A stretch of DNA of 64,000 bases, taken from contig NZ_JAQNDL010000003.1 in NCBI RefSeq assembly GCF_028368995.1, forward strand, positions 2,592,001-2,656,000. The letters run 5' to 3'. Position 1 is the stretch's first letter. Each line of letters opens with the position of its first letter. Source of the DNA: Nannocystis bainbridge (GTDB lineage Bacteria > Myxococcota_A > Polyangia > Nannocystales > Nannocystaceae). The notes below the pieces were generated by a model, which saw only the letters and a program-made list of their open reading frames with translations, did no database searches and had not been told where the DNA came from. Below, piece by piece: positions 1 to 39,142 of the stretch. A program made the translations under genes and the position numbers.

Positions 1-1025
<1,025 letters not shown>

Positions 1026-27554: not shown

Positions 27555-28130
27555 ATGCAGCCCGCCGCCCACGGCGCCACGCTCGCCGACCTGCTCGCCG
27601 TCTCTGACGAGAAGCCCTACTTCGAGTTGCTCGAGGGCGAGTTGAGTCAGAAGGCCGCGCCGCTCTTCAGCCACGGGGACACACAGTTCTCGATCGGCGA
27701 ACAAGTCCGTCGCCACTTCCGCGGCCCACCGGGCGGAGACAAGCTCGGTGGCTGGTGGATCGGCGGCGAAGTGCACGTCGAGCTCGCGCCGAACGAGGTC
27801 GTCGTCCCGGACGTGGTCGGCTGGCGCATCGATCGCCTCCCCGAGCCGCCCGCGGGCTTCCCGGTCAAGAGTCGCCCTGACTGGATCTGTGAGGTCGCCT
27901 CGCCCTCCAGCCCCTCGCGCGACACCGTCCGCAAGCTCCGCATGTACCACCGCGCTGGCGTCCCTCACTACTGGATCGCCGACCCCGATCAGCAGACGCT
28001 CACCGTGTTCCGCTGGCAGCCCGAGGGTTACCTCGTGGTGCTCACCACCCAGCCGCCCGAGCAGGTCCGCCCCGAGCCGTTCGAGGCTGTCGAGTACAGC
28101 GTCGCCGCGCTGCTCGGCGTCGGCGAGTAG
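27555..28130 (+). CDS. Uma2-family (DUF820) PD-(D/E)XK endonuclease
   Basis: ELLEGEL, VVPDVVGWR, PDWICEVASPS and K..MYHRAGVPHYWIADP. Confidence 0.9.
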   Translation: MQPAAHGATLADLLAVSDEKPYFELLEGELSQKAAPLFSHGDTQFSIGEQVRRHFRGPPGGDKLGGWWIGGEVHVELAPNEVVVPDVVGWRIDRLPEPPAGFPVKSRPDWICEVASPSSPSRDTVRKLRMYHRAGVPHYWIADPDQQTLTVFRWQPEGYLVVLTTQPPEQVRPEPFEAVEYSVAALLGVGE

Positions 28131-29651: not shown

Positions 29652-31490
29652 GTGCCCGCTCGCCTCGCCGTCGCGCTCGCCGCTTCGCTCCTGTCCTTCG
29701 GGACATCTTGCAACAAGCAGCCGGCCGCCCCGCCGCCCGTCGCCCCGACCGCGCACGTCGAGCCGGCCTGGCGCGCCTGGGAGCCCGCGGCGTTCGAGGC
29801 CGCCAGGACCGGGCGCAAGATCATCCTCGTCGACGTGATCGCCAGCTGGTGTCACTGGTGCCACGTCATGGACGAGGAGACCTACGCCGACCCCGAGGTC
29901 GCCGCCCTGCTCGCCGAGCACTTCGTCGCCATCCGCGTCGACAGCGACGCCCGCCCCGACGTCGCCGAGCGCTACGCCGACTGGGGCTGGCCTGCCACCG
30001 CGATCCTCACCAGCGACGCTCGCCCCGTGCTCGAGCTGCGCGGCTACCAGGACCCGCGCGAGTTCGCCGCTCTCCTGCGCAAGCTCGTCGCCGACCAGCA
30101 GGCCGGCAACCTCACCGGCCGCGTCTCCCTGCCCGCTCCGCCGCCGCGCGGCGGTGACCTCGTCGACCTGCGCAAGCTCGCCAGCGACCAGCTCGACCGC
30201 ACCTGGGATCCCGACCAGGCCGGCTGGGGCCGCAAGCAGAAGTACCCGCTGGCCGCCAACAACGAGTACAGCCTGTTGCGCGCCTACCTGTACCAAGAGA
30301 CAGCCTGGCAAGAGCGCGGCCTGCTCGTCCTCGACCGCCAGCGCAACCTCATCGACCCGGTGTGGGGCGGCATGTACCAGTACAGCGTCCACGGCGTGTG
30401 GACCGACCCGCACTTCGAGAAGATCGCCCCCATCCAGGCCGGCGCGCTCGAGAGCTACGCCCTCGCCTGGCGCCGCACCCACGACCCGAAGTGGCGCGCC
30501 GCCGCCGGCGACATCGCCCGCTACCTCCTGCAGTTCTGGCGCGACCCCGACGGCGGCTTCTACACCAGCCAGGACGCCGACCTGCGCCTTCCGACAGGTC
30601 GCAAAGGACCTGTCCTTGGGGACGAATACTACGCCAAGGACGACGCCGCCCGCCGCGCTCTCGGCGTCCCCGTCATCGACACCCACGTCTACGCCGACCG
30701 CAACGGGGCCATCCTGCGCGGCCTCCTGCTGCTCGACGCCGTCGCCCCGGACGAGGCCGTGCGGGCCGCCGCGCTGCAGGCCGGCGAGCGGCTGGTCCGC
30801 ACCCACCGCGACGACCGCGGCGGCTTTCGCCACGCCGCCGCCGACCGCGGGCTGTTGCATCTGAGCGACCAGGTCGAGGTCGGCCGCGGCCTGCTCGCGC
30901 TGTGGCGCACGACCGGCGACCCGAAGTGGCAGCAGCTCGCGCGCGACGTCGCCGATTTCGCCCTGCGCGAGCTCGCCGACCCCGCCGGAGGGTTTTACGC
31001 CCACACCGTCGATCCCGCGGCGACCGGCGCCTTCGCCGAGCGGCGCAAGCCGTTCGACGACAACGCTCGCATGGCTCGCTTCCTGCTCGAGCTGCACCGC
31101 GGCCTCGACCACGACGCCGACGACCTGCCCTACGCCAGAGCGGCCGAGCTGGCGATTCGCGCCATCGCCCAGCCCGAGGCCGTCAAGGCGCAGATGCGCC
31201 AGGTCGGCGACTACTTGCTCGCGCTCGCCGAGCTGACCGCCACCCCGATCGACATCACCGTGGTCGGCCGCCCCGACCAGCCGGCCGCGCAGGCGCTCCT
31301 GCGCGCCGCCCTCGCCTACGACGAGCCGCGCGCCAACATCAGCCTCAGCCCGCCCGGCGCCCGCTACCCCGACCTGAAGCAGCCGGCCGCCTACCTCTGC
31401 ACCGACTCCGCCTGCTCGACCCCGATCACCGCGGTCGATCGCTTCGAAAAGTCAGCCGAGGCGTTCCTGCGCGGCGTCCCTCGCCCCTGA
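29652..31490 (+). CDS. Thioredoxin/DUF255 (YyaL/SPATA20-like) protein
   Basis: WCHWCHVMDEETY, RPDV, GWP, PHFEK and GGFYTSQDAD. Confidence 0.85.
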   Translation: MPARLAVALAASLLSFGTSCNKQPAAPPPVAPTAHVEPAWRAWEPAAFEAARTGRKIILVDVIASWCHWCHVMDEETYADPEVAALLAEHFVAIRVDSDARPDVAERYADWGWPATAILTSDARPVLELRGYQDPREFAALLRKLVADQQAGNLTGRVSLPAPPPRGGDLVDLRKLASDQLDRTWDPDQAGWGRKQKYPLAANNEYSLLRAYLYQETAWQERGLLVLDRQRNLIDPVWGGMYQYSVHGVWTDPHFEKIAPIQAGALESYALAWRRTHDPKWRAAAGDIARYLLQFWRDPDGGFYTSQDADLRLPTGRKGPVLGDEYYAKDDAARRALGVPVIDTHVYADRNGAILRGLLLLDAVAPDEAVRAAALQAGERLVRTHRDDRGGFRHAAADRGLLHLSDQVEVGRGLLALWRTTGDPKWQQLARDVADFALRELADPAGGFYAHTVDPAATGAFAERRKPFDDNARMARFLLELHRGLDHDADDLPYARAAELAIRAIAQPEAVKAQMRQVGDYLLALAELTATPIDITVVGRPDQPAAQALLRAALAYDEPRANISLSPPGARYPDLKQPAAYLCTDSACSTPITAVDRFEKSAEAFLRGVPRP

Positions 31491-31606
31491 GCGATCGCCG
31501 ACCCCTCGAATCATAGGACTTCCCGGCGACGCGAACATTCGCGCCGCCGGCGCAATGCGCATACCACGGGCCTCGCGGATCCGCGGACAATGTGCATTCC
31601 TTCCGG

Positions 31607-31679
31607 TGCCCAGAGTTGGACTCGAACCAACCCCTCTCCGTCTTCAGCGGAGTGCTTCCACCCGGTTAGCTTTCTGGGC
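31607..31679 (-). tRNA. tRNA-Phe(GAA), non-canonical, CCA not encoded
   Basis: Folds as acceptor GCCCAGA/TCTGGGC, anticodon arm CTCCG-CTGAAGA-CGGAG and T arm GTTGG-TTCGAGT-CCAAC (73 nt). Confidence 0.85.
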
Positions 31680-31803
31680 GCTGATACGCACCGCTGCGAC
31701 GGCCCGTCCTGCGGCTCCGCGCGCCGCAAAGGCGACGAAACGAACCGGAGAGAGGGGCCGGAGCGCACGCCAGGGCAGCTCCGGAGGCCCGGAGCCGACC
31801 TGG

Positions 31804-31896
31804 CTACGTAAACAGCGAACCCTGGGCGACAACCACACGCACCACCCGCGCGGCGTGGAGCCGCGCGCCGTGGTCGAGATGTCGTGCCGCCTGCAT
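31804..31896 (-). CDS. Putative leader peptide MQAARHLDHGARLHAARVVRVVVAQGSLFT
   Basis: ATG just after the promoter, with the stop directly before a strong hairpin. Too short for the ORF track. Confidence 0.45.
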   Translation of the reverse strand: MQAARHLDHGARLHAARVVRVVVAQGSLFT

Positions 31897-31906
31897 GGTG
31901 ATTACG

Positions 31907-31935
31907 GGTATAGAAGCACCCGCCGCCATTGTCAA
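31907..31935 (-). promoter_or_regulatory. Sigma70-type promoter pointing at the leader and tRNA
   Basis: TTGACA-17 bp-TATACC on the minus strand. Confidence 0.7.
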
Positions 31936-32024
31936 CAGTATGACCCGACCTTTTTTCGTATCGCCGGGCCCGCGCGCTCCTGCGCTTGACGGCCCGCCGG
32001 CCGCGATGCTGTATTGCGGTGCAA

Positions 32025-32672
32025 ATGCGCCGACTCCTCCCCCTCGCGCTGGTGACCCTGGCGACCGCCTGCACCGATCGCCCGGTCGGCGAGGACAGCG
32101 ACGCCGGCTCGTCGACGACCTCCAATTCGACGACGACCTCGACCGCGACCACCGAGTCCCCGACCACCGAGGCCCCGACCACCGGCGGCACCACCGACGC
32201 GCCCGACCCTTGCCTCGAGCACCGCTACGCCAGCGGCGGCTCGCACGCGTGGATGCTGACCTGCGGGCTGCCCGAGCTGTGCGGCGGCGCCGAACCGCTG
32301 CTCTTCTCGACCACCACGCTCGAGCCGAGCGCTCCGGAAGAGATCGAGGTCGACGACCTCGACCGCGCGCGCTGCATGGCCGCGGCCCTGCGCGACCGCA
32401 CGCCGGGGCAGATCGCCTGGTCGCAGGTCGTCGGCCCCGACGTCATCTTCAGCCCCCTCTCGCTGGAGATCGTCCAGGGCACCGCCCTGGTGCGCAACGT
32501 GGACGGCCTCCAAGAGTTTGTGCTCCCCGACACCTACGAGGGCATGTACCCGCTGCGCCCGCCGGAGTTCTTCGCCGCCTGCGCCGAGGGCGACGCGCTC
32601 GCCCTGTGGCAATGCCTCATGGACGCCGTCGAACCGGCGTGCCTGCCCGGCCCCATGACCTGTCCCAAGTGA
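32025..32672 (+). CDS. Lipoprotein with Thr-rich linker
   Basis: Lipobox LATAC, then a S/T-rich stretch and a Cys-containing domain. Confidence 0.75.
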   Translation: MRRLLPLALVTLATACTDRPVGEDSDAGSSTTSNSTTTSTATTESPTTEAPTTGGTTDAPDPCLEHRYASGGSHAWMLTCGLPELCGGAEPLLFSTTTLEPSAPEEIEVDDLDRARCMAAALRDRTPGQIAWSQVVGPDVIFSPLSLEIVQGTALVRNVDGLQEFVLPDTYEGMYPLRPPEFFAACAEGDALALWQCLMDAVEPACLPGPMTCPK

Positions 32673-32725
32673 CATGTGATTTCGGCGCCGGCGACCCGAC
32701 GCACCCGAACCGGCCGCGGCTTGTT

Positions 32726-34096
32726 ATGCTCCTCGCGCCCGTGACCCGGCTCCGCTCCCTCGCCGTCTTCGTCGTCGCCTTCGCGGTGCTCGCGGTGCTC
32801 GCGGGCAAGGACCTGCTGCAGCCGAGCGCCAACAATCACCACGCGCACATGGCCCAGGGCTGGCTCGAAGGTCGGCTCGCGCTCCCGGGCGAGCCGCCGG
32901 GCTACCCGCGCAACTTCGACGACTGGGGCCGCGTCCACAGCCTCACCCTCAAGGACGGCACCGTCCTGCGCGGCTTCCCGTGCCGCACCCCGGCCTGCGT
33001 CGACCGGCGCCGGCGCGAGCGCATCGAGAGCTTCCGCGCCACCGACGGTCGCGTCCACGAAGTCCCGCTCGCGCAGGTCGCCGCGCGCGGCGGCACCTGG
33101 TACGTGACCTTTCCGCCAGGTCCGGCGCTGATCATGTTGCCCGGCGTCGCCCTGCTCGGCCTCGGCTTCCCCGACATCCTGCTCACCGTCGTCGTCGGCG
33201 CGCTGATCCCCGCGTTTCTGCTGCGCCTGCTCGAGCGCGTCCGCCCCGGCCGCACGCGCGAGCACCTGCTCGCCTGCGTCGCCTGGACCCTCGCCAGCCC
33301 GGCCTGCTTCGTCGCCGCCCACGGCAGCGTGTGGTTCACCGCGCAGGTCCTCGCGGCCATGTTCCTCGTGCTGCACATCGGCGCCGCGTGGGCCGCCGAG
33401 CGCCCGCTCCGCGCTGGTCTGTGGCTCGGCCTCGCCGCCGCCTGTCGCCCGCAGGTCGCGTTCGCGCTGCCGTTCTTCCTGCTCGAGTGGCGCCGCTTCG
33501 ATCGCCGGCCCGCCACGCTGCTGCGCTTCTTCGCCCCGCTGGCGCTGATCGGCGCCGCGCTGGCGCTGCTCAACTGGGCCCGCTTCGACGACATCTTCGA
33601 GTTCGGCCACCGCTACCTCGAGATCCGCTGGCAGGCGCGGATCCAGGAGCACGGGATGTTCGGCCTGCACTACCTGTGGCGCAACCTCGAGTGCATGGTC
33701 TGGCTGTGGCCGCAGATCCAGCTGTCACCGCTGCACGTGCGCTGGTCGATCCACGGCATGGGCCTCTTGATCGGCTCACCGTGGCTGCTGTGCCTGCTCG
33801 CCGCCCGCGATCCGCTGCCGCAGCGGTGGGGCCTCGTGCTCGCCGCCAGCGCCGTCGCAGTGCCCGCGCTGCTGTATCAGAACAGCGGCCAGGTCCAGTT
33901 CTCATACCGCTTCGCGCTCGATTTCCTGCCGTTCGTGCTGGTCCTGCTGGTCGCCGGCGGCGGCGCGCGCAGCCGGTGGTTCATGCCGCTCGTGCTCGCC
34001 TCGGCCGCTCTGCAGCTTTACGGCGCATGGCTGTTCCAGCGCGCCCCGGGCCGGCTGTTCGTCGCCGACCCGTGGTGGCCGTTCGCGCCGGAGTGA
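32726..34096 (+). CDS. Polytopic membrane protein (GT-C-like)
   Basis: Many TM helices, with YVTFPPGPA, ACRP, NWARF..FEFG and YRFALDF motifs. Confidence 0.6.
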   Translation: MLLAPVTRLRSLAVFVVAFAVLAVLAGKDLLQPSANNHHAHMAQGWLEGRLALPGEPPGYPRNFDDWGRVHSLTLKDGTVLRGFPCRTPACVDRRRRERIESFRATDGRVHEVPLAQVAARGGTWYVTFPPGPALIMLPGVALLGLGFPDILLTVVVGALIPAFLLRLLERVRPGRTREHLLACVAWTLASPACFVAAHGSVWFTAQVLAAMFLVLHIGAAWAAERPLRAGLWLGLAAACRPQVAFALPFFLLEWRRFDRRPATLLRFFAPLALIGAALALLNWARFDDIFEFGHRYLEIRWQARIQEHGMFGLHYLWRNLECMVWLWPQIQLSPLHVRWSIHGMGLLIGSPWLLCLLAARDPLPQRWGLVLAASAVAVPALLYQNSGQVQFSYRFALDFLPFVLVLLVAGGGARSRWFMPLVLASAALQLYGAWLFQRAPGRLFVADPWWPFAPE

Positions 34097-34281: not shown

Positions 34282-36066
34282 TCAGCGCAGCTCGACCGTC
34301 GCCCCGACCGCGTGCAGCAGCTCCTGGTGCGCCATCGCGGCCTCGCGGGCGACCGCCGCCTTGATCAGCGTCGGCGCGGCCTCGACCAGGTCCTTGGCCT
34401 CCTTGAGCCCGAGCCCGGTGATGGCGCGCACCTCCTTGATCACCGAGATCTTGTTCGGCCCGCACACCTGCAGGAACAGGTCGACCTCGGCCGCCACGCC
34501 CCGCTCCGCCTCGCGCAGCTCGACGGCCGCCCCGAGCGCGACGAGCTGCTGCGCCAGCGCGCTCGCCTCGCTGCGCGGCAGCCCCGAGCGCACCACCGCG
34601 CCGGCCGTCTCCGACATGTCCTTGGACTCCTTGAGCCCGAGCCCGGTCACCTCGCGGATCAGCTTGATCACCATGATCTTCTGCGGCCCGCAGTCGTTCA
34701 GCACCACGTCGATCGGCGTCAGGTCGTCGTCCTCGTCCTCGTCCAGCGCCTGGCCGCGGATCTCCACCCGCGCGCCCGCGGCCGTCAGCGCCTCCGCGAG
34801 CCTGCGCGCCTCGTCCCCGCGCAGGCCCTCCTTGATCATGACGTCGGTCGACTCGGACAAGTCCTTGGCGTCCTTGAGCCCGAGCCCCGTAGCCTCGCGG
34901 ATCAGCTTGATCACGCTGATCTTGTTCTCGCCGTGGTGGCGCAAGATCACCCCGAAGCCGCGGCTCGGCTCGGGCAGCGCTGCCGGCGGCGGCGGGGCTG
35001 CGGCACGGAGCTCGACCTGTGCGCCCACGAGCAGCAGCGCCTGCTGGAGCACCCGCGCATCGAACTCGCCCACGCCCTGCTTGATCACCGAGTCGGCGGC
35101 CTCGGACAGGTCCTTGGCGTCCTTGAGCCCGAGCGTGGTGTGGTCGCGGATGACCTTGATGACGTTGATCTTGTTCGGCCCGTGGTGCTGCAGCACCACG
35201 TCGAAGCGCGAGCCCGACGCGAATTGCGGCGTCGCTGTCGGCGCCGCACGTGGCGCCCCGCGGACCGACACCTGCGCGCCCACGGCTGCCAGCGCCCGCT
35301 CGAGCGCCCGCGCCTCCGGCTCGTCCAGGCCTTGTCGGATCACCACGTCGATCGACTCGGACAGATCCTTGGCCTCCTTCAGCCCGAGCCCGGTGGCCTC
35401 GCGGACCAGCTTGACGACATCGATCTTGCGCGTGCCGAAGTGGTGGAGGATCACCGCGAAGCCGTCCGCAGGCGCGCTCGCCGGGGCCGCGCCGCCGGTC
35501 ACCAGGGTCGGCGTTGCGCTGCTGCCCGTCGCGCCCCACGTCACCGCCGCCGACGCTCCGCTTGTCTCGCGCTCCGCCGGCGCGCTGCCGTCGTGCCCGC
35601 GGACCTCGACGATCGCCCCGGCCTCGACCAACTCGTGGCGCAGCGCCTCTGCCTCGTCCTGGGCGAGCCGCCGCTTCAGCAGGCACGGCGCGTCGTCGAC
35701 CAGCTCGACCGCCTCGCGCAGCCCGAGGCCCATCATCATCTTCAGCGCGCGCACGACGTTGATCTTGTTGTCGCCGCGGTCGCGCAGGTACACGTCGAAG
35801 AACGCCGGCGCTGGCGCGGCGCCGTGGGTCCGCAGCTCGACCGTCGCGCCGACGGCCACCAGCTTGACGCGCAGCGCCTCGGCCAGCGCCGGGGCGATCC
35901 GCGTCCGGATCGCGCTCGGGGCCCGGGCCACCAGCTCGGCGGCCGCGGCCGCCTCGAGGCCCGTCATCGCCCGCACCGCCTCGGCCACCGCCGCCGGGTT
36001 CGCCCCGGCTTCGCGCAGGATCACGTCCTGCGGGACAAATTCGCCCGTCTGGCCTCCGCCCGTCAT
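34282..36066 (-). CDS. Protein of seven tandem ribosomal bL12 (L7/L12) C-terminal domains
   Basis: Seven ~68-aa repeats of FDV.L...G.NKI.VIK.IRE.TGLGLKEAKDL.E...GA.VELR. Confidence 0.88.
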   Translation of the reverse strand: MTGGGQTGEFVPQDVILREAGANPAAVAEAVRAMTGLEAAAAAELVARAPSAIRTRIAPALAEALRVKLVAVGATVELRTHGAAPAPAFFDVYLRDRGDNKINVVRALKMMMGLGLREAVELVDDAPCLLKRRLAQDEAEALRHELVEAGAIVEVRGHDGSAPAERETSGASAAVTWGATGSSATPTLVTGGAAPASAPADGFAVILHHFGTRKIDVVKLVREATGLGLKEAKDLSESIDVVIRQGLDEPEARALERALAAVGAQVSVRGAPRAAPTATPQFASGSRFDVVLQHHGPNKINVIKVIRDHTTLGLKDAKDLSEAADSVIKQGVGEFDARVLQQALLLVGAQVELRAAAPPPPAALPEPSRGFGVILRHHGENKISVIKLIREATGLGLKDAKDLSESTDVMIKEGLRGDEARRLAEALTAAGARVEIRGQALDEDEDDDLTPIDVVLNDCGPQKIMVIKLIREVTGLGLKESKDMSETAGAVVRSGLPRSEASALAQQLVALGAAVELREAERGVAAEVDLFLQVCGPNKISVIKEVRAITGLGLKEAKDLVEAAPTLIKAAVAREAAMAHQELLHAVGATVELR

Positions 36067-36287
36067 CGCTCGACCTCCGGGGCCGACGATACCCGAATCA
36101 CCGCGGCACCGTCGCGTCCGCGGACACGGGCGTGTTCGCACCGAGCACCCCGTCGGTGGTCTCGCCCCCCACACCGCGTCCCGGGCGCGATCTCCCGCCA
36201 GCGCCGGGCCGTCCCGCTGCTGCGCTCGCCGGGTCGCTCGAGCAATCCCCCTCGCGCCTCGGCCGACTTCGCCCCGCACCCGGTCGT

Positions 36288-36345: not shown

Positions 36346-37844
<1,499 letters not shown>

Positions 37845-37848
<4 letters not shown>

Positions 37849-38302: not shown

Positions 38303-38368
38303 ATTGCGCCGACGCCGCGGCCGATTGGGCGCGTGACAGTCGTCGCGCGGGGACCCTACACTCTCGGC

Positions 38369-39142
38369 GTGCTTCGTCGCGTCGTCGCCGCTCGCTATGT
38401 CGTTCCGTTGCGGGAGGGCGGCTCGTTACCCGGCGTCGTCGAGGCCGACGACGGCCGCTCCTACGTCGTGAAGTTCCGCGCCGCTGGCCAGGGAGCGCGC
38501 GCTCTGGTCGCCGAGATCGTGGTCGGCGAGCTGGGCCGCACGCTCGGCTTGCCGGTGCCGGAGCTGGTGATCGTCGAGCTCGACGCGGGCGTCGGCCGCA
38601 ACGAGGGCGACCCCGAGATCCGCGACCTCGTGGTGGCGAGCGCCGGCGACAACGTCGGCATGACTTTCTTGGCCAGCGCGATCGGCTTCGACCCCGCGGC
38701 CCGGCCGAAGCTCGATCCGTCGCTCGCCGCCCGCACCGTCGCCTTCGACGCCTTCGCCCAGAACATGGACCGCACGGCCAAGAACACCAACCTGCTGTGG
38801 TGCGCCGGCAAGCTGTGGCTCATCGATCACGGCGCGGCGCTCTACTGGCAGCACGACTGGGACGGCGGCCTCGCCGGCGTCGACTCCAAGTTCCCGCTGA
38901 TCGCCAACCACGTGCTGCTCCCGTGGGCCAGCCCCATCGCGGCCGAGGCCGAGTGGTTGACCGCGGGCCTCACCGACGCGGCGATCGACGCGGCCACCGC
39001 GGCGGTGCCCGAGGCGTGGTGGACGGCCCCGCCCGCGCTGCCGCCTGACGAGTTCCGGGCCGCCTTCACTGCCCGTCTGCGAGCCCGCCGCGACGCCGCG
39101 GCCGTCTACCTGGAGGAGGCCGACCGTGCGCGCGCCGTTTGA
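38369..39142 (+). CDS. HipA-like kinase (HipA_2 type)
   Basis: RYVVPLREGGSLP, VVKFRAAGQG, NMDRTAKNTNLL and LIDHGA. Confidence 0.8.
   Translation: MLRRVVAARYVVPLREGGSLPGVVEADDGRSYVVKFRAAGQGARALVAEIVVGELGRTLGLPVPELVIVELDAGVGRNEGDPEIRDLVVASAGDNVGMTFLASAIGFDPAARPKLDPSLAARTVAFDAFAQNMDRTAKNTNLLWCAGKLWLIDHGAALYWQHDWDGGLAGVDSKFPLIANHVLLPWASPIAAEAEWLTAGLTDAAIDAATAAVPEAWWTAPPALPPDEFRAAFTARLRARRDAAAVYLEEADRARAV

Follow-up and report, generated by a model that had tools for sequence, protein, structure and literature searches.

We examined a 64,000-nucleotide (nt) stretch of the Nannocystis bainbridge genome (the window; G000:C2:2592001-2656000), in which a divergent, supernumerary transfer RNA (tRNA) gene, tRNA-Phe(GAA), lies on the minus strand behind a leader of about 225 nt. 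Comparison of this leader with its relatives suggests that it is probably a translation-sensing regulatory leader of the spare tRNA-Phe. The support that we regard as decisive for a sensor of ribosome stalling comes from a family pattern, in which similar leaders before other spare tRNA clusters appear enriched in codons for the amino acids of those same tRNAs. The initial annotation had described an attenuator-like leader controlling a tRNA gene; the idea of a stalling sensor gains strong comparative support from the sister leaders and from the conserved ATG, UUU and UAG of the frame; the terminator that an attenuator implies is not supported.

The source genome (G000; 11.05 Mb, 71.5% GC, five contigs) was compared with 10 other Nannocystis genomes and 50 genomes from outside the genus. 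Counts out of six refer throughout to the source genome and the five same-genus relatives that carry the unit (G001, G003, G005, G007 and G010). The unit opens with the promoter TTGACA-17-TATACC that the initial annotation had recognized, and which is invariant or nearly so in all six genomes. Housekeeping tRNA promoters of the source genome follow TTGACR-17-TAYNCM, with the -10 hexamers TACCAC, TACACA, TATACA and TACGCA; TATACC is therefore a normal -10 element in this organism. A simple promoter scan listed no promoter at the locus, since it accepts only T as the sixth base of the -10 hexamer. A sigma-54 promoter was rejected by eye on account of its spacing, and inspection by eye only found no repeat between the -35 hexamer and the ATG. 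The canonical tRNA-Phe gene elsewhere in the genome (G000:C1:3913162-3913235) has its promoter only about 40 nt upstream and a leader of about 5 nt.

The ATG of the leader frame follows the -10 hexamer by 10 nt (10-12 nt across the six genomes), which leaves no space for a Shine-Dalgarno sequence. The 30-codon frame ending CTG-TTT-ACG-TAG is present as first described, and ATG, UUU and UAG are retained in all six genomes at a length of 30 or 31 codons, the single indel being 3 nt long. TTT is the sole Phe codon of the frame in the source genome, and its claimed rarity is confirmed at 1.47 per 1000 codons against 28.7 for TTC; it had been placed correctly near the stop codon, at a position one nucleotide off. 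Both ends of the leader peptide are conserved (N-terminal MQATR[H/Q]LD, C-terminal ALF-x-stop) and the middle is not. Taken by itself, the Phe frame is equivocal.

Sister leaders before other spare tRNA clusters

At 51 tRNA loci, grouped from the 93 of 102 tRNA predictions that pass a T-loop filter, we searched 400 nt of upstream sequence for TTGMMN-16..18-KANNNN followed 3-16 nt later by an ATG that opens a frame of 8-60 codons. Four of the five matches lie at spare-tRNA loci; the fifth, before an odd tRNA-Arg, was discounted for its poor promoter. A looser look added a further cognate-rich leader with a GTG start, before a Leu/Pro/Tyr cluster. Serine makes up 8 of the 25 residues of the Ser leader, including the run RSSSSSR directly before the stop, and its codons AGY, UCC and UCG match the three anticodons of the cluster. 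The Glu/Asn leader has four Asn (three of them AAU) and four Glu codons, together 8 of 30, and the Leu/Pro/Tyr leader devotes 20 of 41 residues to its three amino acids, with codons CUC, UUG, CUG and UAU. The Cys leader has a single Cys among 23 residues, with one to three UGU codons across relatives, and the Phe leader, which ends GSLFT, has one Phe (UUU) among 29.

Binomial p values on a short-frame and a proteome background are, respectively, 0.023 and 3e-5 for the Ser leader, 6e-6 and 1.3e-3 for Glu+Asn, 6e-7 and 1.2e-5 for Leu+Pro+Tyr, 0.53 and 0.28 for Cys, and 0.31 and 0.59 for Phe. Combined over the five leaders by Fisher's method, they give 6e-10 and 3e-9 on the two backgrounds; of 120 permutations of leaders over clusters, the true one has the best score. 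The cognate codons are mostly rare, wobble-read and U-ending (AAU three times, AGU three times, UAU twice, UGU and UUU). Rare-codon p values run from 1e-5 to 9e-5 for the three AAU, from 2e-6 to 9e-5 for the three AGU, from 0.002 to 0.004 for the two UAU and from 2e-4 to 1.5e-3 for two CUA codons. A strict form of the motif (TTGACN-17-TANNNN, ATG, short frame) has 11 matches in 22.1 Mb of both strands, the Phe leader among them; 3 of the 11 stand at spare tRNAs, against an expectation of 0.01 (p 1.7e-7). For the loose motif the count there is five, with 0.57 expected (p 3e-4). No promoter-plus-frame enriched in cognate codons turned up within 700 nt upstream of a tightly packed array of about 23 divergent tRNA genes or of an Ala-Ala cluster.

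The four sister leaders are kept in 5/5 relatives searched, with the same distribution by genus as the Phe leader; the relatives in these comparisons are not independent. Serine is retained in the Ser leader across codon families (codon 6 is AGC, UCC or ACC; codon 24 is AGU, UCG or CCG), in-frame expansion has raised the UGU of the Cys leader to three copies in both G005 and G010, and the Leu, Pro and Tyr content of the Leu leader is maintained through in-frame indels. Gap events divisible by three account for 7 of 9 inside the five frames and 9 of 68 downstream (Fisher p 1.3e-4), and this alignment pattern shows reading-frame constraint on the five frames as a set. Both exceptions measure 2 nt: one sits at the Glu stop boundary, and the other shifts the Cys frame in G007. 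Hairpins after the stop codons display compensatory changes (CCCCG/CGGGG to CCCUG/CAGGG; GCUCCG/CGGAGU to GCCCCG/CGGGGU), and the last codons of the Glu leader serve as the 5' arm of a 10-bp hairpin whose loop holds the stop codon. In four of the five leaders the regulatory codons lie one to five codons from the stop, which suggests a switch operated by a ribosome that sits on the 3' end of the frame. The first 45 nt or so of the four leaderless frames are C-rich and G-poor, the sole hint of a possible Rho loading site. In the source genome only, the Cys leader also contains a tandem 10-nt repeat, GCGCGTGCCT, in about seven copies.

Two further strict-motif matches stand before protein-coding genes. 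One is a Thr-rich leader of 24 codons with the same promoter type and its ATG 7 nt after the -10 hexamer, followed by a terminator, GCCCCGCC-loop-GGCGGGGC-UUUGG, and an antiterminator, GGGUGGGG:CCCCGCCC; behind it lies a paralog of threonyl-tRNA synthetase (ThrRS) of 406 residues which lacks the N-terminal domains (TIGR00418, 452 bits, profile positions 170-548). This textbook Thr attenuator implies that the source organism uses leaderless leader peptides that sense charged tRNA. The other match precedes a 382-residue EF-Tu paralog (NF000766, 523 bits); this leader is a paralog of the Cys-tRNA leader and shares its post-stop hairpin. Judged by these gene assignments, such leaders are placed before duplicate parts of the translation apparatus.

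Fold of the leader RNA

The RNAalifold consensus and separate folds of the six sequences give the same three-way junction after and around the end of the frame. RNA folding and conservation of the frame in relatives were among the checks named in the initial annotation: the frame is kept in all six genomes, in each of which the junction folds with a z-score of -3.84 to -5.63 against shuffles, 0-1 of 200 shuffles folding as well. Conservation falls in blocks. Almost no change is seen in the promoter, in roughly the first 27 nt of the frame, in GCGCTGTTTA-GTAG, in the whole hairpin as far as GCGCTCCGGCC, or in the 25 nt that directly precede the tRNA; variation is found in the DNA upstream, in the mid-part of the frame and in another stretch of some 50 nt. 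Over most of the frame a long imperfect hairpin (domain A) is predicted, whose folding barely beats that of shuffles (z -0.86 to -2.34).

Stem P1 joins the last sense codons of the frame to the invariant block abutting the tRNA; it is without covariation, contains three G-U pairs, and takes a slightly shifted register in the source genome's own minimum-energy fold. Hairpin P2 is the CCAGG..CCGGAGC..CCTGG hairpin first noted from the sequence, extended to the stop codon, and 15 of its 17 pairs never vary (-31.8 kcal/mol). In P3 the apex of 40-50 nt is wholly different in sequence between species, and yet the hairpin is always formed. The second GCTCCGG, noted before as a repeat preceding a pyrimidine-rich tract, is indeed present; the tract proves to be the variable 5' strand of the long P3 hairpin. 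In the conserved fold this GCTCCGG pairs with GGCCGTCGC next to the tRNA, and just above lies the only covariation in the fold, at the base of P3 (column 166:218: UA in three genomes, CG in two, GC in one).

The topology is that of a classical four-region leader, with pairings 1:2 (P2) and 3:4 (base of P3) in the ground state and 2:3 as the alternative. The alternative pairing of CCGGAGC with the downstream GCTCCGG, proposed in the initial annotation, is feasible at -14.2 kcal/mol and is predicted to form with a ribosome footprint over the stop codon. A conserved UC/UC internal loop at the base of P3 may be explained by this 2:3 pairing.

Other candidate functions were tried and set aside. A hammerhead or other ribozyme was rejected since the junction has just three unpaired bases, and a conserved trap based on leader-tRNA mispairing was rejected for want of covariation. 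The pyrimidine tract CCCCUCUCUCC (31747-31757, minus) is complementary to GGAGAGGGG of the tRNA (31631-31639, minus), which is the 3' strand of the anticodon stem plus the variable loop, in the source genome only and in none of the five relatives. A cmscan search against 4227 Rfam families, with E up to 10, returned only the tRNA and two chance matches.

Table 1. Features of the tRNA-Phe unit and of related leaders. Positions are those of the window unless a genome coordinate is given.
Feature	Position	Strand	Sequence and basis
-35 hexamer	31935-31930	minus	TTGACA; invariant in 6/6 genomes
-10 hexamer	31912-31907	minus	TATACC after a 17-nt spacer; TATA[C/A/T]C in relatives
Domain A, long imperfect hairpin over most of frame	31819-31899	minus	predicted in 6/6 genomes
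Leader frame	31896-31804	minus	MQAARHLDHGARLHAARVVRVVVAQGSLFT; ATG 31896-31894, 30 codons, stop TAG 31806-31804
P1, 5' strand	31811-31818	minus	UCGCUGUU (relatives GCGCUGUU); Ala/Ser-Leu-Phe codons; RNAalifold and single folds
Putative regulatory codon UUU (Phe)	31812-31810	minus	penultimate sense codon, invariant in 6/6; in 5' strand of P1
P2 hairpin including stop codon	31765-31807	minus	GUAGCCAGG.CGGCUCCGG-loop-CCGGAGCUG.CCCUGGC.GUGC; 17 pairs
P2 core	31803-31770	minus	CCAGG (31803-31799) TC GGCTCCGG (31796-31789) GCCT CCGGAGC (31784-31778) TGC CCTGG (31774-31770)
Region 1	31796-31789	minus	GGCUCCGG
Region 2	31784-31778	minus	CCGGAGC
Second GCTCCGG	31764-31758	minus	followed by CCCCTCTCTCC
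P3	31696-31764	minus	region 3 GCUCCGGCC (from 31764) with region 4 GGCCGUCGC (31704-31696); 6/6 single folds
P1, 3' strand	31688-31695	minus	AGCGGUGC; inside invariant 25-nt block abutting tRNA
Spacer from junction to tRNA +1	31680-31687	minus	GUAUCAGC, 8 nt; from sequence
Divergent supernumerary tRNA-Phe(GAA)	31679-31605	minus	ARAGORN; Rfam tRNA 56.6 bits (cut-off 29)
Trailer inverted repeat	31553-31599	minus	GAAUGCACAUUG ... UAUGCGCAUUG; read from sequence; without U-tract
Ser(gct)-Ser(gga)-Ser(cga) cluster and leader	G000:C3:526095-526700	minus	TTGACG-17-TACATC, ATG 6 nt later, MLPRRTDRTRSPRSVSGFGRSSSSSR, stop
Glu(ctc)-Glu(ttc)-Asn(gtt) cluster and leader	G000:C1:1430260-1430676	plus	TTGACG-17-GATACT, MSRLNPNTSNPARFRVLGNEERELERILRGG, stop
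Pro(tgg)-Leu(gag)-Leu(caa)-Tyr(gta)-Leu(cag)x2-Leu(gag) cluster and leader	G000:C2:2356727-2357900	minus	GTG-started frame, end AGLLLLPELLDPRPYLRLLPYLPR, stop
Three spare tRNA-Cys and leader	G000:C1:3057230-3057900	minus	frame ends TSSLCRR, stop; one UGU
Thr-rich leader	G000:C3:626480-628000 (motif C3:626568)	plus	MLRRATTATTTTTLSGGVGRVRVR, stop; 24 codons; strict-motif match
EF-Tu-paralog leader	G000:C1:3117600-3119760 (motif C1:3119643)	minus	MLRATRIVQSQLALSQPQLLDLSCA, stop (end DLSCA); strict-motif match

Proposed mechanism and alternative explanations

We propose that transcription starts a few bases before the AUG, which would yield a leaderless or nearly leaderless mini-mRNA. A ribosome would read its 30-31 codons, the last of which (GCG CUG UUU NNG UAG) double as the 5' strand of P1 and the foot of P2. 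With prompt decoding of the rare, wobble-read UUU by Phe-tRNA the ribosome would terminate and depart, and the RNA would close into the three-way junction of P1, P2 (1:2) and P3 (3:4), ending 8 nt before the tRNA. Slow decoding of UUU, or slow release at UAG, would keep the ribosome on P1 and the foot of P2, so that the junction stays open and region 2 would be free to pair with region 3. The closed junction would be the OFF state, and the open state would allow mature tRNA to be made; the sign of control, with stalling, and perhaps antibiotics, switching the unit ON, is what we infer from this scheme. The OFF state might operate through factor- or hairpin-dependent premature termination or pausing, possibly involving Rho, or through blocked maturation of the tRNA 5' end. 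Of these outputs, termination or pausing comes close to an even prospect, processing or stability is possible at a somewhat lower level, and a different output step is improbable. The spare tRNA-Phe would in this way be made when the housekeeping tRNA-Phe fails.

Several observations weigh against this proposal. The initial annotation had implied a terminator, but P2, the 2:3 hairpin, P3 and P1 all lack a following U-run, there are no terminator-like sites in 30500-33000, and the downstream GCTCCGG pairs near the tRNA in the conserved fold; U-tract terminator sites are also not enriched in the genome region (4 found, 4.4 in shuffles). As there is no hairpin-U terminator, we do not file the leader as a classical attenuator, though its action may be similar by way of a different output. 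By prediction, the upper part of P2 (1:2) stays intact when the ribosome has UUU in its A site, and region 2 is freed only by a ribosome at the stop codon; the relevant pause may thus be at the stop codon. The covariation score is matched by 41 of 500 shuffles. P1 and P2 are without covariation support because they are invariant, and rest on conservation and energy. The lone Phe codon is not significant (p 0.31-0.59 as a residue, 0.04-0.07 as TTT), and the Ser and Glu leaders also contain one Phe each. The Cys frame is frameshifted in one of six genomes (G007; either a true change or an error of assembly), the family pattern emerged post hoc, and the start codon of the Leu frame was chosen by the analyst. 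No sequencing run on record as RNA contained the locus; contigs of four runs labelled RNA-Seq or metatranscriptomic cover 31607-31817 or 31607-31704, but these runs are flagged as probably DNA, their contigs are less than 90% or 95-99% alike to the locus and derive from relatives, and they are uninformative on expression.

The alternative that survives best, although we consider it unlikely, is that the leader acts as RNA only, as an element for the processing, stability or folding of the pre-tRNA (for RNase P, E or III, for example), with an accidental and untranslated frame. The three-way junction is after all the best-supported feature of the locus, and the region of the frame itself folds into a hairpin in all six genomes. 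The remaining two frames are also open, and at a GC content of 71% an open frame tells nothing. Base changes within the Phe frame show no third-position bias (1, 5 and 3 at codon positions 1, 2 and 3 between G005 and G010), and the conserved ends of the frame are unchanged at synonymous sites as well, so that constraint at the level of RNA explains the Phe frame as well as coding does. The missing terminator and the non-significant Phe codon point the same way. A purely structural role leaves unexplained, however, why the ATG is fixed 10-12 nt after the -10 hexamer in all six genomes, why four sister frames carry cognate rare codons and frame-preserving indels, and why the same leaderless design drives a textbook attenuator at the ThrRS paralog.

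Control of the opposite sign seems very unlikely. Here a stalled ribosome would free the 3' strand of P1 (CAGCGGUGC) to mispair with the tRNA body at GCAC-UC-CGCUG (D-stem and anticodon stem), and stalling, in Phe starvation for instance, would lower tRNA output, a stringent-like control acting locally. In the window this strand can pair with tRNA positions 24-34 through nine Watson-Crick pairs, in the Glu leader the 3' arm GCCCGC, once freed, matches the tRNA 5' end GCGGGC, and full-length minimum-energy folds do mispair leader and tRNA, but such folds of an unmodified tRNA are unreliable. In G003 the tRNA stem changes from CCGCUG to UCCCUG without a matching change in the leader, and a leader change in G001 breaks a pair; the pairing is therefore without comparative support, and homeostatic logic favors induction. 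Least probable of all is that the upstream RNA is the product, either a 30-31-residue small protein or a small, stable RNA with a 3' end made by RNase P, and the tRNA mainly a processing signal: the conserved start and stop of the frame and a very stable junction that could protect the upstream RNA at its would-be 3' end would fit, but the peptide is not conserved over its middle two thirds, the leader matches no Rfam family, the tRNA is itself selected, since it keeps its cloverleaf and GAA through compensatory changes, and the cognate codons of the sister leaders are unexplained.

Returning to the translation-sensing leader, we tentatively extend it to a wider scheme, in which large-genome Nannocystis might possess an inducible back-up decoding system, each scattered unit being induced by its own leaderless leader peptide that senses failure on the codons the unit rescues. 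Its components could be spare tRNAs that cover nine amino acids or more (Phe, Cys, Ser, Glu, Asn, Leu, Pro and Tyr, plus those of the array of about 23 genes), the EF-Tu paralog and the truncated ThrRS paralog. Such a system would be a damage response at the level of tRNA, which could counter anticodon nucleases, other toxins or antibiotics that hit housekeeping tRNAs or factors, and would tie in with current interest in tRNA-targeting toxins and in the phage tRNAs that evade them. If true, this would be the first case of tRNA genes under leader-peptide control and a new regulatory logic, where the decoding of a codon is measured and a different tRNA for that codon is made in answer; the puzzling supernumerary tRNA sets of bacteria would also gain a function, and an induction signal that can be tested. 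All five leaders are present in the culturable Nannocystis exedens DSM 71, and so the idea is directly testable.

The spare tRNA set, its distribution and comparison with known systems

ARAGORN predicts 102 tRNAs in the source genome, some of them GC-rich false positives, and these include a divergent second set beside the canonical one, comprising the array of about 23 genes and smaller scattered clusters. The divergent tRNA-Phe belongs to this second set. It is unusual, as first noted, with A8 in place of U8, an atypical D-loop, G37 and no encoded CCA, and it has the cloverleaf, GAA anticodon and discriminator A73 predicted of a bacterial elongator tRNA-Phe. Across the six aligned genomes, G001 and G003 show compensatory changes at acceptor pair 7:66 and two anticodon-stem pairs with GAA kept, which indicates selection on it as a tRNA. 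It is the sole cargo of the leader, the adjoining downstream gene being convergent. An inverted repeat in the trailer, of which the part GAATGCACA..TGTGCATTC is kept in relatives, is possibly a 3' end or terminator hairpin.

The array lies at G000:C2:2556665-2559233 (plus strand), 33 kb left of the window start. Its tightly packed genes are for Gln, Met, Asn, Lys, Asp (three), Gly, Thr, Val, Arg (three), Trp, Glu, Pro and Ile, and many of these tRNAs have a non-U8 or odd T-loops. The genes neighboring the tRNA-Phe locus are unrelated to it (a DUF255 thioredoxin-like protein and a lipoprotein). Elsewhere in the window, a 665-residue protein (34282-36279, minus) consists of seven repeats of the C-terminal domain of ribosomal protein L7/L12 (Pfam PF00542, E 5.5e-138) and adjoins a sigma-54 activator (36346-37848, minus). 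A Uma2-family putative endonuclease (27555-28130, plus) and a HipA-like kinase (38333-39142, plus) are nearby, with no link to the tRNA-Phe leader seen.

BLAST against the 60 related genomes recovers the leader and tRNA as a unit, nearly full length and with 75-83% identity, in 5 of the 10 other Nannocystis genomes; it was not found in the other five, whose assemblies are fragmented, measure 4.5-9.1 Mb and are 64-88% complete. The 50 genomes outside the genus gave only four chance matches of 23-44 nt. A D-arm pattern scan of the genome contigs found 94 stretches, of which four were real, all from Nannocystis and identical to loci already found; two metagenome scans gave no match, and an nhmmer search for further copies of the leader in the source genome returned only the locus itself. 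The genes flanking the unit differ between species, which implies that promoter, leader and tRNA behave as a module.

Leader-peptide attenuation is textbook control of amino-acid biosynthesis and of a few synthetase operons, with trpL, hisL, thrL, pheL before pheA and pheM before pheST as ribosome-mediated examples in E. coli. As in these, the Nannocystis leaders have a short frame after the promoter with codons cognate to what the operon supplies, in runs in the sister leaders (SSSSS, LLLL), and the end of the Phe frame overlaps the first of the mutually exclusive pairings 1:2, 2:3 and 3:4 that are predicted here. Unlike them, the cargo is a tRNA gene instead of biosynthetic or synthetase genes, the mRNA is leaderless and without a Shine-Dalgarno sequence, and the Phe leader has one regulatory codon and no run. 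Its 3:4 pairing is a hairpin of 62-71 nt within a three-way junction that is closed by the last codons of the frame, and a hairpin-plus-U terminator is missing. Of the features of a classical attenuator, the leader family shows cognate codons, a feature that is weak in the Phe leader by itself, and the Phe leader has, by prediction, mutually exclusive pairings, but no intrinsic terminator. The Thr-codon attenuator of the same genome (G000:C3:626568) shares its promoter type and leaderless frame, and differs in having both a classical terminator and an obvious antiterminator, of which the Phe leader has neither.

At tnaC, speFL and mgtL/mgtP, ribosome occupancy at or near the stop codon controls Rho-dependent termination, in response to a small molecule or proline sensed via a conserved nascent peptide. 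The Nannocystis leaders resemble these in the position of their regulatory codons near the stop and in that no intrinsic terminator would be needed; in contrast, the peptide body lacks conservation, and it is the downstream tRNAs that the codons match. T-box riboswitches are leader RNAs that report the state of one specific tRNA and control translation-related genes, as would be the case here. The Phe leader, however, gave no Rfam T-box match (E up to 10) and has no Stem I, specifier loop or T-box sequence, and its sensing would run through the translating ribosome.

The genes for tRNAs themselves are thought to be controlled at their promoters, by growth rate, by the stringent response or, in Anabaena, by a repressor. 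A literature search of a limited collection returned no paper on leader-peptide control of tRNA genes. In Anabaena sp. PCC 7120 two reports describe a long tRNA array (the trn operon) that is induced by translational stress (PMC8421152, PMC10272220), and the repressor TrcR binds direct repeats over its -10 element and transcription start (PMC8421152); a leader or attenuation goes unmentioned in the available part of that report. Like Anabaena, the one studied case of inducible spare tRNAs, Nannocystis has supernumerary, divergent tRNAs beside the housekeeping set that are proposed to be made under impaired translation. The difference lies in the means of control, where Anabaena has a promoter repressor and each small Nannocystis cluster would have its own amino-acid-specific leader frame.

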